Shown here: positions 36,500 through 42,400 of the stretch, one piece after another | Layout: each line of letters starts with the position of its first letter | Position numbering within the stretch: position 1 is the first letter of the stretch | Assembly: GCA_043821645.1 (NCBI GenBank) | Contig: JBDRCO010000043.1 | Span: 64,001 to 128,000, forward strand | Source: Pseudomonadota bacterium | Lineage (GTDB): Bacteria; Myxococcota; JACRCW01; JAFGSX01 | DNA: 64,000 nucleotides | Reading direction: 5' to 3' | Made by a program: the position numbers

Positions 36500-39400
36500 G
36501 CACCACGCCACGCTCCGCTGCCGCCACGGCCTCGAGCGCCGCGTCGAGCTGGGCCTTGCAGTCGCACTTGAGCGATCCCAGCACCTCGCTGGTCAGACAC
36601 TCGGAGTGCACCCGGCACAGCACGCGGGACTCGCCGCGCACCACACCGCGTACCATGGCCACGTGCTCGAGCTGCTGGGCGTCGCGGTACACGATGCACC
36701 GGAACATGCCGTGCACCGTGGGCAGGCGGGTTTCGCTGTAGCGCTCGACCAGCGCGCGGCGAGCGTCAATCTGCGGAAGCACGTGCATCGCTCGCCTCGT
36801 CAGGCCGGGATGACCTCGCCAAGATCGGGCACCCGCTCCTTGAGCACGCGGGTCACACCGTACAGCAGGGTCATGGTGGCGCCGGGGCAGCCGGCACAGG
36901 CCCCCACCAGACGAACATGAACATCATTGCCCTCGAGCTTGACCAGCTCGACGTCGCCGCCGTCGGCCTGCAGGGCCGGGCGGATCTCATCCAGGGCGTC
37001 GCGAACACTTTGCTCGGTGACCATCTCGAACACTCCAGTCCGTGTGTCTCCTCGACGGGAGAACGGCAGGTACTATTGACATCACGACGTCACCTGTCAA
37101 CAGAAGACGCCCCGCGTCATGCACCCTCTATGTAGCAAAAAAGCCTGCCCCGCGCAGGGCGAGGCAGGCTCGAGAGAGAAGGGATTCGGTGGACTTTAGA
37201 CCTGCGTTTGCATGGTCTGCTTGACACCGCTGGTGGCCTTCTCGACCACCTTCGAGGTCAACTCCAGTTCCTGCGAGTACTTGTACACGCTGGCCTGGAT
37301 CGCGAGCAGCTGCTGCGGGTCGAACTTCTTGCCGCTGGTGGCCAGCTTGATGATGGAATCGAGCTTGCCCTGGCCCTCGACCATGCCGCCAAGCAGGTTC
37401 TTGAAGCCCTTGCCCATGGTCTCCTTGCCCGGCTCCACCGCGTGGGTGGTGTCCGAGGCATTGAGCTTGGCCGCCTTGAGGGTCTCGACAGCCTTGTTGG
37501 GGCTCTCGACCTTGTTGACCTCCGAGACATGCTGCAGCTGACTGACCTGGCTGGCCTGGTTGACCTGGCCGGCCTGCTGCGTGGCCATCACGTCCTGGAA
37601 CTTGTTGACCTGCTGGGTCTGTTGATTCTGAACCTGCTGCTGGGCTTGCTTCTGGATCTCCTCGACGATCTTCTGCGAGGCCTGCCCCAGAGCGCCAACG
37701 GGATTTGCCATCACATCCTCCCTCGCGAGATGCGCGCGGCATCTCGGGGTGTGGGGACAGAAATCGGTCCCCGCTCCGCCGCGGTCCATGTACGGTCCCG
37801 CTGCGAACAAGGCCATTATCGGCCGCGGAGGCTGGGGGGTTGCGGCAGAACACCGCCGGTCGCTGGGCGATTCTCTCGTGATGATAAGATATTACAAAAA
37901 AGGCAGGCAGACCGGCAGGACGCGAGCACCCATGAAAAGTGGCCCTACTCTTCTTCCATGAGCAGATCGCGCAGGATACGCGACATCTTCTCGATGGCCT
38001 TGGCGTGCAGGCGAGAGGTCCAGCTCTTGGACAGGCCCATGCTGTCGCCGACCTCCTGCAGGCTCATCTCCTTGAAGTAGTACATGGTCAGCAGGTTGCG
38101 CTCCTGCTCGGGCAGGCGCGACAGGGCGTCGCGCACGTGGGCCTTGACCTGCACATCGCTGACCTTGATATCGACCGGCAGAGCTTCCAGGTCCTCGACC
38201 TGCAGTCCCTCCATGCCCTCGAGACTGGTCACGAAGATGGTGACCAGGTTTTGCACGGTGTCGGCCAGTTCCTCGACCTCCGCCTCGACCGCCTTGTTGT
38301 CCTCGCCGATGGTCTGGCGGTCGTTGACGTTGGCCAGGTAGGCGTTGGCGCGCTCCTCGAAGCGGAACTTGGCGTACTCGTTGCGCGATACCCAGCCCAT
38401 GTTGCGCAGGCCGTCGTAGATGGCGCCACGGATCCGGTAGTACGAGAAGGTCATGAAGTTGGCGCCGAACTTGGGATCAAAGCGGCCCGCCGCCTCGAGC
38501 AGACCGACCATGCCGTACTCGACCAGGTCGTCGAACTCGATCTCCTTGGCCAGGCTCTTCTTGATCTTGCCGGCGATGGAGCGCACGTAGGGCAGGTACT
38601 GGTCGATCAGCGCCTTTTGGTCCGCCAGGTTGGGGGCGACCGCGCTGCTGGTCCTGGGCTTGCTCGCGCCCAGCCCCTTCTTGGCAGGACTGGCCGTCGC
38701 CCGGTCGCGATCTGTCGACTTGCTGGGCGTCACCCTGCGACCTCGCCTCGGTGCTGGTCCGTCGCCTCGGCGCTGCTCCTGGCACCGTGCCAGACGCAGA
38801 TGAAACGCCGCCGACTCCCCGCGAAGGCGCCGGGGCCACACGCACTCATCTTAGAGAGGGGGTCTCCTAGCGTCAACAAAGCGACCGGCGTGGATGGACA
38901 GGTGTTCAGGATTTGGCCGGGCGAGCCAGCTGGGATTGCAGGCGCTGCGCCAGGGCCTCATCGCGGTTGATCAGATCCGACACCGCTTCTTCGACGTGCT
39001 TGGCGTCCTTGCCCTTGAGGTTCTTGAAGCGATCCCGCACCACGGCGGACACGAAGCGCTTGGTGGAGTCCTGCTTGTCGCCGGCCTCGGCCAGCTCCTT
39101 GGCCACCCCCATCAACTCCTCGAGCAGGGCCGAGCGCACATTGCGCGCCATGGCCTCGGTGGACTCGGCAGTGCCCACGCGCTCGACCATGCGCGCAAAA
39201 CCGGGCCCCTTGCTGCCCTTGGTCTTCTGGGCGCCCTCGGATCGGGACCCTCGAACAGGCCCTGATGATCGACCGATGCGCATGCTGGCCTCTTTCCGTT
39301 TCTGCTCAGCCTACAAATGGTGGCGCCCGCAAGCCGGAACCACCGCCCCATTGTTGCCAGTATCGGCGCCGGAGCGCTGATGATTCGACAAAGTGGAGGG

Positions 39401-42400
39401 ACTCTTTACAGCTTGCCAAAGCATCCGACGTCATGGGCCTCGATCAAGCTGCGCGCGAAGTCCCCGGCGAGGCCATCGGGCTCCATCTTGATGGCCTGGT
39501 TCAAGGCCTGCAGGCCCTCGTCGAACTTGCGGAGAAACAGCAGGGCCTCGCCGATGTGCGCCTGCGCTAGGGCCGAGCCCGGGGCGACCTTGAGGGCCTC
39601 GCGGTGGGCCTTGAGGGCCTGCTGGAACTTGCCCTGGGCAAAGTACATGTTGCCCATGCCCACGTGGGGCACCTCGCTGTGCGGGATCAGGGCAGCGACG
39701 CCACTGAAGACCTCCTGCGCCTCTTTCCACTTGCCCAGTTCCATGTAGAGGTAGCCCGCCTCGAGCAGCAAGGCGACCTCGCTCTGCGGCACGTCGACGA
39801 TGCCCTTGACGATGTGCTCGGCCATTGTCGTTTCTCACCCGGTGGTTCGACCCGCATCGATTGTGATCGTGAATCGCGCCCGGTCACAAGTTCTTTTTTG
39901 GCGACGGGCGGAGCCACCTCGACGGACAGCGGGTGGGTGCCAGATCCGGCGCCATCGCATCGGGCGGGGATCCCCGTCGGCACCGACGTCGCGCTTGTCC
40001 TCGACACGGCAGAACACGCCGCCCGGGCCGCAGCCGCCTGTGCGCGGAGGCCCTGTCACCACTGCAAGGCCGTGCGGGCCGCGAGCGACAGATCGGAGCA
40101 CGGCGTGGTGCACGGTGGACCGTCGACGTGATGCCAGTGCACGGCGCCGGGGGCCGCGCCCAGGCGCAGCAGGGTCGACGAGCGGGTGCCGTAGTTCCAG
40201 CGCGGCGCGTGCACGCACACACCCTCGAAGCCGGGGTCGTCGTGGTGGCTGAGGATGCGCAGCAGGGCCTCGTCGTCCGGCGGCGTGGCGGGGGGCAGGG
40301 CCTGCACCGCGCGCTGCACGAAACCCGGACGCTCGCTGCTGCCGGCGCCGAGGCTGCGCTCGGTGACGACGTGCCAGCCTGGCGCCAGCACCTCGCCCTG
40401 CATGCGCACCCCATCGTGGAACAGCCTGTGCGCACCCTCGCGGTCGGCCAGGATGAGGTGAAAGGGATTGTACGCCGCGGGGTCGAGGGCCGCGGCGTGG
40501 GCCGCTGCGGTGCCGGCGTCGTCGAAATCGAGAAGGTCGCGCACCAGCAGGCCGCGCGATCGCCGCGCGGGATCGGGCGGCGCGCCGAAGCGGTTGGTCA
40601 CACCCACGAACAGCCCGCGCTGGTTGAGGCCCAGCCAGGTGCCACCGGCCACCGCATCCTCTGGGGCAAAGAAGCGCCACCGCTCGCCCTGCCAGGCGCG
40701 GGGAGGCAGGGAGGCGCGGTCGAGTTGCTCGTCGCGGTTGGCCGCCACCAGCAGCGGCCACTGCGGCCACAGGCCCACGGCCACGGTCAAGGTACACACC
40801 TGCCACCTCCTGCCACAGCATGTAGGGGTGTCGGGTCAGCTCGCAAGTGCGCTCGCATCCCCGCGAAAAGGGTAGCTAATTTGCTCTGTTGCAGGTGCCC
40901 GGCTATGCTTCAGGAGGCTTTCCTGATCGCAAGCGCGAGTCGAACCTGGGGGCCTGCATCGTGTTCGTTGGTCTGCGCGTGCGCACCGCGGCCCTGGTCA
41001 TCGCCCTGGTGGCGGTGGGGGGCACCGCCTACGCCCTGTTCTCACTGGAGCGCGAGCGCACGGTCCTGGAACAGAGTCTGCGCTCGAATCTCATGGCCAC
41101 GCTGAACGCATTTGCCATCCCCTGCGCCATGGCCATCGCCAACGATCGCGTCGACACCCTGGACAATCTGGTGGCGGCCGTGGCCGAGCGTGCGGACGAG
41201 CTGGGCCTGCTCGAGATCACCGTGGTCGACCACACGGGCCGCGTGCTCGCCGATAGTCGCGTCGAGCGCTTCGGCGAGAACCTGACCGATGCCTTCACGC
41301 TGCAGGCGCTGCACAGCGATGTGCCCGTGTGGCAGGTCGACGGTAGCCGGGCCCTGGCCAGCCACCCCGTGATCAGTGGCCTGCGCTGGGGCACCTTGCG
41401 CGCGGCGCTGACCCTGGATGCCATGCACGCGCGCCTGGCCCAGCGGCAGCGCGATCTCGGGCTGCTCTTCGTCGCCGGCGCCCTGACCATCGCCCTGGTG
41501 CTGATGTTGACCCTGGGCGTGCTGGTGGTGAACCCGGTGTCGGCGCTGGCCGCGACGGCGCAGCGTCTGGGGCAGGGCGACCGCAGCGCGCGCATCGGCC
41601 GCTACCGCCGCGACGAGCTGGGCGAGCTGGGGCGCGCCTTCGACGAGATGGCCGCGCGCATCGCCAGCCACACCGACGACCTCGAGCGCACCGTGGCCGA
41701 GCGAACGGCCCAGCTCGGCGCGACCAACAGCCAGCTCAGCGAGACCAACGCCCGCCTCGAGGCCGCCAACCGCCAGCTCGAGCGCCTGGCCGTCACCGAC
41801 GGGTTGACCACCCTGTACAACCACCGGCACTTCCAGGAACTGCTGGGCCTCGAGCTCAAGCGCGGCACGCGCGCCCCGCACCACTTCGCGGTCATCATGA
41901 TCGATGTGGATCACTTCAAGCACTACAACGACACCCATGGCCACCCTGCGGGAGACGAGGTGCTGCGCCAGCTCGGGCGTCTGCTCGGCCAGAACCTGCG
42001 CGAGACCGACGTGGTGGCGAGGTACGGTGGTGAGGAGTTCGTGGTCATGTTGGTGGACAGCGACCGCGCCGCAGGTCTGGCCACCGCCGAGAAGATCCGC
42101 GCCCTGGTGGCCCAGCATCCCTTTGCTTTTCGCGAACAACAGCCCGGCGGCGCGGTGACCATCAGCGTGGGGGTCGCCTTTTACCCCGACGACGGTCTGA
42201 CCCCGGGTGACCTGATCTTCGCGGCGGACCAGGTGCTGTACGCGTCCAAGCGCGCGGGCCGCAACCAGGTGACCGCCACCGACGCCAGCCGGACACGCAA
42301 CCTGCCCCAGAACGACGGCGCCGCGAGCGCGCAGGATCCCGACGGGGAGGGCGCATGAGGTCGTGGACCCTTGTCCCCGCTCTGGCCGCGCTGCTCGCGG

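Follow-up and report, generated by a model that had tools for sequence, protein, structure and literature searches.

A second sigma-28 factor linked to the T3SS* of a Myxococcota genome and its candidate promoter regulon

Gene content of the locus and of the T3SS*

The window—the whole stretch of 64,000 nucleotides analysed here—carries a FliA/WhiG-like sigma gene that adjoins an SctI-like inner-rod gene and, beyond a conserved ORF, a TPR chaperone gene (Table 1). That the sigma gene lies next to an SctI-like and a TPR gene had been described in the genome-wide survey's note, whose proposed promoter before the sctI-like gene could be located as well. Translation of the SctI-like ORF most likely begins at 37711; in genomes G109, G005, and G001, sctJ directly follows the orthologue of this gene. 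For the sigma gene, an alternative start at 38841 would give 298 aa. The 125-aa ORF shows no consistent Pfam or PDB match and no FlgM match; it is a candidate secreted regulator or anti-sigma factor, an exported anti-sigma at this locus being only a guess.

Table 1 Features of the sigma locus and a second promoter copy (window coordinates)
Feature	Position	Strand	Evidence or remark
Intrinsic-terminator-like hairpin, candidate end of sctI-like transcript	37141..37171	-	13-bp stem and T tail; consensus match only
SctI-like inner-rod gene, 171 aa	37196..37711	-	NF038054 SctI E 2e-4; PF17001 E 0.038; both below cut-off
Predicted sigma-28-type promoter GCAAC-N17-CGATA, GCCGATAA at -10	37817..37843	-	~110 nt before sctI-like ATG
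T3SS*-associated sigma-28 (FliA/WhiG-like), 262 aa	37945..38733	-	Sigma70_r2 and r4; TIGR02479 E 3.5e-45
Candidate sigma-70-like promoter match before sigma gene	38848..38876	-	9/12 consensus positions
Conserved 125-aa ORF, Gly/Pro/Ser-rich export-type N-terminus	38906..39283	-	Relatives at same position in 9 other loci
T3SS TPR chaperone, 139 aa	39406..39825	-	NCBIfam CdsG E 1e-9, LcrH_SycD E 1.8e-9; both below cut-off
Second perfect promoter copy in the window, before 47-aa ORF (15194-15337)	15384..15410	-	Motif match

The sigma factor possesses regions 2 and 4, and its top four NCBIfam matches are FliA/WhiG models (TIGR02479 at 154.5 bits, below its cut-off of 189.6), which places it in this family. 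It shares 28% identity with the flagellar FliA encoded on contig C86, and region 4.2 reads SKSWTSRLH in the former versus TESRVCQIH in the latter. A classification as flagellar FliA was rejected: the genome encodes a complete flagellar system, whose cluster has its own FliA and—as the survey's note had it—a different -35 element, TCAAG, before flagellin, with 0 GCAAC sites on the flagellar contig.

The core of a long-locus Myxo T3SS* (SctRSTUV, SctN, SctJ, SctQ, and SctI) is encoded in this genome, scattered over contigs C43, C70, C87, and C134, in line with the earlier description. Matches of sctV, sctU, and sctQ exceed the NCBIfam cut-offs, and sctN reaches 595 bits against a cut-off of 605; sctJ, sctO, and FliO were assigned by Pfam and sctRST by similarity to fliPQR. 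The sctV product is 62% identical to that of clustered loci in family f11. The SctP-like gene, likewise confirmed, matches Flg_hook (E 4e-6) and has the promoter in front of it. In this 94.7% complete genome, a dedicated T3SS secretin was not found, the two secretins lying in the type 2 secretion and type IV pilus clusters. Searches for a Kil/Tad system returned PilC-/GspF-like genes only (PF00482), no third secretin (PF00263), and no further ATPase class (PilT query); with neither a T3SS secretin nor a Tad platform among these matches, no outer-membrane route for T3SS* export was found.

The promoter in this genome and across the phylum

With GCAAC-N16/17-CGATA as working motif, 20 of the 26 matches in the genome lie upstream of genes, whereas eight other spacings place just 2 of 36 there. 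The literal motif given previously, GCAAC-N14/15-(G/A)CCGATA, yields 8 genome matches, not 45, and CGATA alone shows a mild positional excess and no more. The promoter precedes sctI, sctP, the gene of a NopE-type MIIA protein, and genes of signal-less proteins; before the core gate genes sctV, sctN, sctJ, and sctU of this genome the site is missing.

The phylum sample comprised 151 genomes, among which kin are not independent, so that p-values at this level are overstated. The sigma, earlier reported from 57 of 101 genomes, is indeed widespread, being present in 89 of the 151. Test versus control spacings gave 3099/1057 counts in these 89 genomes and 779/594 in the other 62, and the excess is significant genome by genome in 51/89 versus 4/62. 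It tracks the T3SS* sigma and not flagellin: a ratio of 2.59 holds for 43 genomes that have the sigma but no flagellin found, against 1.18 for 45 where neither was found. Long-locus sctV accompanies the sigma in 83 genomes, both are missing in 59, and one stands alone in 9—an agreement in 142/151. Gene order points the same way: the promoter lies in the gap that separates sigma from sctI in 14/18 related loci, and in G109 the sigma sits within an intact T3SS cluster. Departures exist: family f10 contributes twelve small sigma-positive genomes without an excess (ratio 1.04), G011 shows one though neither sigma nor sctV was found, and flagellated sigma-negative genomes reach a ratio of 1.8 (n=17). 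The spacing control, the separation from flagellin, the co-occurrence with sctV, and the promoter position in these loci are tests independent of the genes from which the motif was drawn, and they give good support to a second sigma-28 that serves the T3SS* through a promoter of its own. That this sigma itself reads the motif is very probable.

Candidate cargo and a needle- or pilin-like family

Among the strict targets, 1/18 has a hydrophobic N-terminus versus 1403/3742 in the background, and the N-termini are S/T/P/N-rich (p 0.003) and acid-poor (p 9e-6). G109 gives a similar picture (9/13 S/T/P/N-rich, 1/13 hydrophobic). In G005, however, 9/25 scored targets bear hydrophobic N-termini, and hence the promoter is not an exclusive mark of T3SS cargo, nor is the regulon confined to signal-less proteins. 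Many signal-less LysM proteins lack the site. One target carries DUF1521 with intact GDPH and has a homologue inside the T3SS cluster of G109; DUF1521 is a domain of the T3SS-secreted NopE (PMC6506597). Judged by these features, the signal-less targets are probably exported through the T3SS*.

The survey's note had singled out peptidoglycan (PG)-binding hydrolases as targets. On recount, CGATA[AC] precedes 11/15 PG_binding_1 genes versus 123/3759 others (p 9e-14), and a hydrophobic N-terminus is seen in 0/15, both as had been claimed. The term hydrolases proved too wide: a clear PG-hydrolase domain is found in 6/15, next to three C39-like proteins, one L,D-transpeptidase, and five without a recognised catalytic domain. 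The second motif, CATCGG(T/A)C, stands on the sense strand before 5/15 rather than 9/14 genes; CATCGG on either strand precedes 9/12 PG genes with a -10 box versus 260/3759. As for the promoter, 12 PG genes have a -10 box, and the -35 is perfect in just one of these and mostly weak. At up to one mismatch, the promoter is found at 5/15 PG genes versus 7/900 here. Out of sample, near-perfect promoters occur at 9/24 PG genes of relatives versus 1/24 in the antisense control, with 15/24 lacking such a site and one of the 9 positives lying ~400 nt from the likely start. This out-of-sample test supports that PG-binding genes belong to the sigma-28 regulon. Their proteins lean toward the S/T/P/N-rich, acid-poor N-terminal type (p 0.016), so that PG proteins and strict targets alike bear the sequence traits of T3SS substrates, i.e., such an N-terminus and no Sec signal. 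Longer starts of the 15 reveal a hydrophobic stretch in just 2, both upstream of the -10 box. A role as T6SS peptidoglycan effectors was considered and rejected, as no T6SS sheath gene (VipB match) was found in the genome and, with regard to linked immunity genes, just 3/15 are followed by a gene in the same orientation whose product has a hydrophobic N-terminus.

The most conserved target of the promoter is one that the survey's note had missed. A conserved gene that lies upstream of the TPR gene in relatives is headed by this promoter too, and the C-terminus of its product weakly but repeatedly matches needle and HrpA pilin models; hence, the “needleless” T3SS* may have a filament or translocon subunit. 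This needle/pilin-like family is present in 126/151 genomes, measures 150-220 aa in relatives and 363-643 aa in the seven long paralogues of this genome, and has a Gly/Ala-rich N-terminal part. Among 142 members, PF09392 matches 14 (best E 0.0046) and TIGR02105 matches 3, none reaching a curated cut-off of the SctF needle family. The C-terminal helix aligns in register with both models as well as PrgI (E 1.3) and the 43-residue chain of PDB 7y6c (E 0.24), and a low-confidence monomer model (pLDDT 51) shows one long C-terminal helix. In 55/73 genomes scored, the gene is found upstream of the sigma at a distance of no more than 2.5 kb, and in two short loci it directly precedes sctI-sctJ (G109) or sctJ (G123); a place beside rod/ring genes or a chaperone gene of the SctG type is what would be expected of SctF. 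Weak leads to SseD and NolX were also noted. The TPR protein ties between the needle-chaperone (SctG) and translocator-chaperone (LcrH) classes; its predicted structure (pLDDT 95.6) retrieved generic TPRs and class II chaperones in the top 50 rows of a fold search (Z 16.3-18.0). A filament or translocon role of the family is somewhat more likely than not.

Interpretation and comparison with known systems

We favour, at a probability of roughly 65%, that a dedicated sigma-28 of the long-locus T3SS* drives its late or exported parts and candidate cargo through GCAAC-N16/17-CGATA; motif and specificity, co-occurrence, gene order, and N-terminal features are direct observations. The sigma would have been retained from a flagellar ancestor with an altered region 4.2, and would turn on the inner rod sctI, the ruler sctP, and probably the genes behind sctP. 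Further targets would be the needle/pilin-like family, substrates linked to chaperones, among them the MIIA protein, and a scattered set of enzymes without a signal peptide, PG-binding peptidases included. The ancestral cluster may have been broken up in this genome, the shared promoter keeping co-regulation. PG-binding genes might form a weaker-promoter subclass, probably needing a second factor at CATCGG. The signal-less proteins would most likely leave through the T3SS* gate, and some may act on prey walls. T3SS*-driven lysis involves localised peptidoglycan degradation (PMC12428579), and that the PG enzymes are the cargo lysing prey is a tentative proposal, somewhat short of an even chance.

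Against this stands, with sigma and promoter taken as genuine, a broad attack or lifestyle regulon in which the PG enzymes are co-expressed with the T3SS* and not exported by it; they may leave via vesicles, lysis, or another route, or remodel the own wall from the periplasm, e.g., to let the machine through. The weak -35 and private second motif of the PG genes, the Sec-type targets in G005, the L,D-transpeptidase, and the lack of a T3SS secretin or Tad system among our matches fit this idea, as does a passage of Abby and Rocha, by which the Myxo system may not reach outside (PMC3459982). A review, in a statement that counts against the favoured reading, has M. xanthus secrete its diffusible hydrolases without dependence on Kil/T3SS* (PMC10433427). 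However, no PG protein has a signal peptide at its called start, longer starts hardly change this, and the N-termini resemble those of other targets; with their substrate outside the cytoplasm, these enzymes need a Sec-independent gate. We regard such a regulon as unlikely, though a serious contender. A comparable weight falls on the needle-like family being translocator or tip subunits (SctB, Bsp22/EspA type) with LcrH-class chaperones: the TPR protein scores equally as LcrH with SycD, PcrH, and IpgC among its fold neighbours, a Gly/Ala stretch in the short form is moderately hydrophobic (19-aa hydropathy 1.3-1.9), an LcrH-like gene precedes one of the long paralogues and one has a glycine zipper, and the SseD and NolX leads agree. 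The recurring weak matches are nevertheless to needle and HrpA pilin models, the gene of the short loci sits immediately before sctI-sctJ or sctJ, and a 65-residue version exists.

Far less probable is a reading of the GCAAC promoters by flagellar FliA, with export of the proteins through the flagellar gate. The complete flagellar system, the overlapping -10 boxes, and the modest excess in flagellated sigma-negative genomes would allow for it, and exported lipase and protease of Xenorhabdus are under FliA control (PMC3814329); yet flagellar genes here use TCAAG, the excess persists in the 43 genomes without a flagellin found, and the site is fixed before non-flagellar T3SS genes across families. 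Circular or chance enrichment—these very genes were the first source of the motif, and CGATA alone has its mild excess—is scarcely credible and, for the bipartite motif, refuted by spacing controls in this genome and the 151, by the constant place of the site at orthologous loci in many families, and by the out-of-sample PG test.

Returning to the dedicated sigma-28, a bolder combination of its parts is possible, if doubtful: the T3SS* would have its own divergent SctF/HrpA-like filament subunit, transcribed from a dedicated sigma-28 promoter like flagellin and expanded here into seven long variants that share a polymerising tail and differ in their bodies; this promoter would mark cargo including prey-lysing hydrolases; and the system would work without a Kil pilus, as a living intermediate with flagellar class-3 regulation and a filament but no secretin. 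If true, a conserved needle-/translocon-like subunit in both Myxo T3SS loci would change the prey-lysis mechanism and alter the account of SctF loss in the earliest-branching T3SS, as outlined in part of PMC3459982. Current models, as worded in a passage of PMC12075869, take the T3SS* as needle-less, which requires the tips of Kil pili to fill that role, and T3SS* substrates are stated as unknown in a section of PMC10433427. The PG-binding enzymes are candidate antibacterial wall hydrolases.

The M. xanthus T3SS* (MXAN_2434-2464) likewise comprises SctI, J, N, O, P, Q, R, S, T, U, and V, an SctL/FliH-like protein, FliO, and LcrH-type chaperones, without a dedicated secretin. Here, on the contrary, the genes lie on at least four contigs, no Kil/Tad partner was found, a flagellum is present, and a needle/pilin-like family exists where needle and translocon are described as missing in M. 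xanthus. Passages on that system name no regulator, promoter, or substrate and state needle and translocon as missing (PMC3459982, PMC10433427, PMC12075869); T3SS*-dependent prey lysis is, in a passage of the last, a phenotype known for M. xanthus only. With the flagellar class-3 regulon, the present system shares a FliA-family sigma, the -10 box GCCGATA, and control of late exported subunits; it differs in region 4.2, in the -35 (GCAAC versus TCAAG), in its tie to a non-flagellar T3SS, and in a neighbouring ORF without FlgM match. The gene order, in which a small helical gene is followed by subunit, TPR, ORF, (sigma), sctI, and sctJ, resembles yscE-F-G-H-I-J. Compared with SctF/HrpA/Bsp22 subunits and their E/G chaperones, all matches stay below cut-offs, and the proteins are longer with a Gly/Ala-rich N-terminal part.

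HrpL with the hrp box of Pseudomonas syringae is a T3SS-dedicated sigma system, and hrp boxes gave substrate lists in plant pathogens. Similarly, a promoter box common to much of the phylum can serve to find substrates and offers a genome-wide candidate list, for cultured myxobacteria too. BtrS/BtrA of Bordetella resembles the present case in that a sigma encoded at the T3SS locus turns on some of the apparatus together with bsp22, which specifies the filament, and an effector gene located elsewhere (PMC7498569). BtrS and HrpL are, however, ECF sigmas of host-targeting injectisomes with secretins, whereas the factor described here is a sigma-28 of a predator-type system.

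A sigma-28 paralogue and its probable promoter

The sigma-28 paralogue shares 28% identity with the FliA encoded in the flagellar cluster of contig C86. Its −35 recognition helix reads SKSWTSRLH—near-invariant among relatives—versus TESRVCQIH in flagellar FliA. The identity of the neighboring SctI-like gene is backed by gene position, as its orthologue lies 5′ of sctJ in G109, G005, and G001 (numbered genomes of our 151-genome phylum sample). Further non-flagellar T3SS genes are dispersed over C87, C134, and C70 besides the window; the genome-wide survey's note had already described these genes as scattered. 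We used 5395 genes from a codon-model gene caller built for this analysis; because of this different caller, gene counts deviate slightly from those of the survey.

Sigma locus (window positions) and dispersed non-flagellar T3SS genes
Feature	Position or contig	Strand	Remark
TPR gene	39406-39825	−	
125-aa ORF	window, between TPR gene and sigma	−	
Sigma factor	37945-38733	−	best models FliA/WhiG
SctI-like gene, 171 aa	37196-37711	−	SctI match E 2e-4, weak by sequence
sctN-O-P-Q-fliO-R-S-T, sctJ, SctL/FliH-like gene	C87		
sctU	C134		
sctV	C70		

For the 125-aa ORF, neither a FlgM match nor any other consistent match was found, leaving the idea of an anti-sigma factor without backing. Of the public RNA runs, a single one from a single study matches 0.11 of the words. 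The only exact-match RNA pieces listed, 37414-37592 and 37612-37808, lie on the sctI-like gene and its leader and were not used as evidence because contigs are uninformative on transcript start, strand, and level.

The promoter is real, although the counts reported for it in the survey did not stand: the literal motif GCAAC-N14/15-(G/A)CCGATA has 8 genome matches and is replaced by the wider definition GCAAC-N16/17-CGATA (−35 and −10 boxes). This yields 26 genome matches, 22 of them intergenic and 20 facing a gene start, versus 36 matches for eight other spacings, with 5 intergenic and 2 upstream of genes. For the phylum sample (below), a spacing control replaced a reversed-pattern control, which includes a stop codon and tends toward low counts. 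CGATA alone was dropped as a predictor, being too frequent (before 191/3624 genes). A site with at most one mismatch in the −35 lies between sigma and sctI in 14 of the 18 examined loci bearing both genes—13/17 distinct ones, as two loci are the same contig. In a 16-locus set, sigma lacks an sctI neighbor in 8.

The GCAAC site is likely read by this sigma, which is associated with the long-locus myxobacterial T3SS (T3SS*). Of the 151 genomes, 89 carry sigma and 86 long-locus sctV; 83 possess both, 59 neither, 6 sigma only, and 3 sctV only. Spacings of 16/17 versus 20/21 count 3099/1057 in the 89 genomes with sigma and 779/594 in the 62 scored without it, and the excess is individually significant in 51/89 of the former versus 4/62 of the latter. 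Kinship among genomes inflates every phylum p-value; the pattern is nonetheless seen across many families. As for the four sigma-negative exceptions, G138 has its sigma split across two contigs, G003 and G021 bear sctV with a distant sigma only, and G011, scored sigma-negative, is the one left without an explanation. The flagellin promoter indeed differs in its −35, as the survey had proposed: flagellin and other C86 genes carry TCAAG-N14/15-RCCGA(T/G), and no GCAAC site was found on C86. Split by flagellin, the spacing ratio is 2.59 for sigma-positive genomes without detected flagellin (43 genomes), 1.8 for flagellated sigma-negative ones (17), and 1.18 for those with neither (45). Counter-evidence comes from family f10, in which 12 small sigma-positive genomes (e.g., G045, G050, and G118; 1.3-3.4 Mb) retain sigma along with sctV yet lack any motif excess (ratio 1.04); these are possibly host-associated lineages with an altered promoter.

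Flagellin-family matches occur in 63/151 genomes, far more commonly than the non-flagellated model species would suggest. The needle-like gene (see below) heading the short T3SS locus L186 of G123 (~10500, − strand) shows upstream what we take to be a sigma-54-like −24/−12 pattern, and that of the short locus L184 of G109 (~11600) a partial one; the GCAAC promoter is absent from both. Different sigmas may thus serve the two Myxo T3SSs.

Targets and peptidoglycan-binding proteins

Among the 20 targets are sctI, sctP, the ORF-LcrH pair that follows sctU, and three needle-like paralogues, along with a DUF1521/MIIA protein whose GDPH is intact, a LysM protein, and one peptidoglycan (PG)-binding C39 peptidase; several belong to no known family. 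The site is absent upstream of sctV, sctN, sctJ, sctU, the TPR gene, and sigma itself. MIIA is a domain of T3SS-secreted NopE proteins, according to PMC6506597, and a homologue of the MIIA protein sits inside the G109 T3SS cluster.

A hydrophobic N-terminus is seen in 1/18 strict targets scored (both boxes present) versus 1403/3742 in the background; compared with non-hydrophobic background proteins, their S/T/P/N content is higher (p 0.003) and D/E lower (p 9e-6). Conversely, genes chosen by an export-type N-terminus alone carry the −10 box in 17/64 cases versus 230/3710, and in 8/54 (p 0.02) after exclusion of the strict and PG genes. In relatives, hydrophobic N-termini were found in 1 of all 13 promoter matches of G109 (9 being S/T/P/N-rich), in 2 of 27 scored from the first 30 of 232 matches in G028, and in 9 of 25 scored from the first 30 of 74 in G005. 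Among the domains of relatives' targets are PLD, phosphatase, amylase, and proteases; 37/60 scanned proteins lack a Pfam match. The regulon is thus enriched for export-type proteins, yet not confined to them. Genomes G028, G052, and G067 of family f19 each bear ~200 perfect promoter copies, most of them upstream of genes whose products match no known family; this regulon is very large and offers many candidate substrates.

Some single loci deserve mention. In the window, a perfect promoter (15384-15410, −) precedes two tiny ORFs of 47 and 36 aa (14999-15337, −), which may be remnants of one gene. In a promoter-bearing 1652-aa protein (G000 C23:66444-71402, locus L115), a GDPH motif is accompanied by an N-terminal region resembling the MIIA protein and by numerous short repeats, which produce low-level HMG/WH matches. 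Promoter matches are absent for two adjacent signal-less annexin-domain proteins with export-type N-termini, one also bearing LysM (window 19689-20843 and 20883-24314, −), and for an 815-aa protein with a disordered-looking N-terminus and no Pfam match (window 32404-34851, +). A signal-less protein with a −10 box (G000 C127:20596-21336, locus L145) shows a weak papain-fold Tox-PLDMTX match below cut-off (E 0.002).

The survey had proposed PG-binding hydrolases as prey-lysing cargo. Its enrichment of CGATA[AC] upstream of PG_binding_1 genes is reproduced (11/15 versus 123/3759), as is the lack of hydrophobic N-termini (0/15). The term hydrolase suits only part of this set: 6/15 bear a clear wall-hydrolase domain (three VanY, CHAP, M23, and M74), and the remaining nine comprise three C39-like proteins, one L,D-transpeptidase, and five without a recognized catalytic domain. 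Among the 12 PG genes with a box, the −35 is perfect in only 1 and within one mismatch in 4, and CATCGG lies upstream on either strand in 9/12 versus 2/18 strict targets. Hence, the PG genes form a separate promoter class, which is probably factor-dependent. The element CATCGGTC occurs upstream of PG-binding genes (e.g., G000 C1:11130 and C72:129418) in either orientation, in some cases forming an imperfect palindrome, and is a putative regulator site specific to wall enzymes. Membership of PG genes in the regulon is supported by out-of-sample genes of five relatives (30 loci taken from 50 domain matches), where 9/24 carry a site that departs from the two boxes by no more than one mismatch versus 1/24 on the opposite strand; in G109, a near-perfect site precedes 1/4.

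Export of the PG enzymes by T3SS* fits their absent signal peptides, the absent T6SS sheath gene, and localized wall degradation, which PMC12428579 describes for T3SS*-driven lysis. A T6SS route was rejected, as no VipB match was found in the genome. Against the cargo reading, the only secretins found in the genome are of T2SS and pilus types, a Tad platform was not found, and PMC10433427 states that M. xanthus secretes its diffusible hydrolases independently of Kil/T3SS*. PG enzymes are plausible candidates for T3SS* cargo.

The needle-like family

In relatives, the promoter also precedes a gene of 150-220 aa directly 5′ of the TPR gene. The family (2580 representatives) shares a highly conserved C-terminal helix. 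Among 142 members, the T3SS models matched repeatedly are T3SS_needle_F (14), HrpA_pilin (14), and HrpF (5) in Pfam, and HrpA (10) and SctF (3) in NCBIfam—all below cut-off and accompanied by unrelated ones such as Arg_decarb_HB (22) and TrbL (18). The C-terminal profile finds a single match in the PDB (E 0.24), a 43-residue chain of 7y6c that is listed under a needle co-chaperone name and that we infer to be the needle peptide. The full-length profile gave one unrelated PDB match and single-sequence searches E 0.67-1.3. A 65-aa version matches a needle model at E 0.005, and PF09392 is found on 11% of members of an Atlas neighbor cluster.

The family is present in 126/151 genomes, and a member lies within 2.5 kb upstream of sigma in 55/73 sigma-positive genomes with position listed. 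In short T3SS loci, it stands directly 5′ of sctI-sctJ (G109) or sctJ (G123). It shows no similarity to the window's SctI-like protein. Tandem copies exist in L038 of G017 (8796-9527) and L188 of G005, one only 65 aa, and matches number up to 14-15 in G005 and G047. In this assembly, tblastn, profile, and six-frame pattern searches found neither the short gene nor the small helical gene preceding it, by loss or assembly gap; there are only seven long paralogues (363-643 aa) that share the tail, three bearing a perfect promoter.

The gene order—small helical gene, subunit, TPR, ORF, sigma, sctI, sctJ—resembles yscE-F-G-H-I-J. The needle-like protein might be the needle subunit, or else a translocator or tip subunit; sequence and fold likewise leave both SctG and LcrH class for the TPR gene, where the lack of an SctG structure among the matches listed does not count against SctG. 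Needle or translocator, either would contradict statements that both are missing (PMC3459982, PMC10849154, and PMC12075869). If M. xanthus shares the G109 gene order, the needle-like region would make up the start of MXAN_2434-2464 and would then lie outside the published deletion mxan_2438-2451. The needle-like subunit is a new, testable lead.

Comparison with known systems

The regulon is real. Sigma factors dedicated to a T3SS are already known; new is a sigma-28 in this role, with the GCAAC promoter and these targets. We found no literature on MXAN_2437, presumably annotated as FliA-like, and none pairing SctF with Myxococcus among the papers listed. A literature search, with supplements outside its coverage, returned no description of the sigma, the promoter, the regulon, or a Myxo needle subunit; nor do the available parts of PMC10196010, PMC11509652, PMC3814329, and bioRxiv 10.1101/2025.05.06.652439 describe them.

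The motif, its specificity, co-occurrence, synteny, and N-terminal bias are all directly established. We infer an order of events, in which the core gate would be built first and sigma would next switch on rod, ruler, filament-like subunits, and cargo. By analogy, the 125-aa ORF could serve as an exported regulator, FlgM- or BtrA-like. Such a role of sigma would be akin to that of FliA, which turns on the late genes of the flagellar system, and to that of BtrS of Bordetella, which controls bsp22 and bteA, according to PMC7498569.
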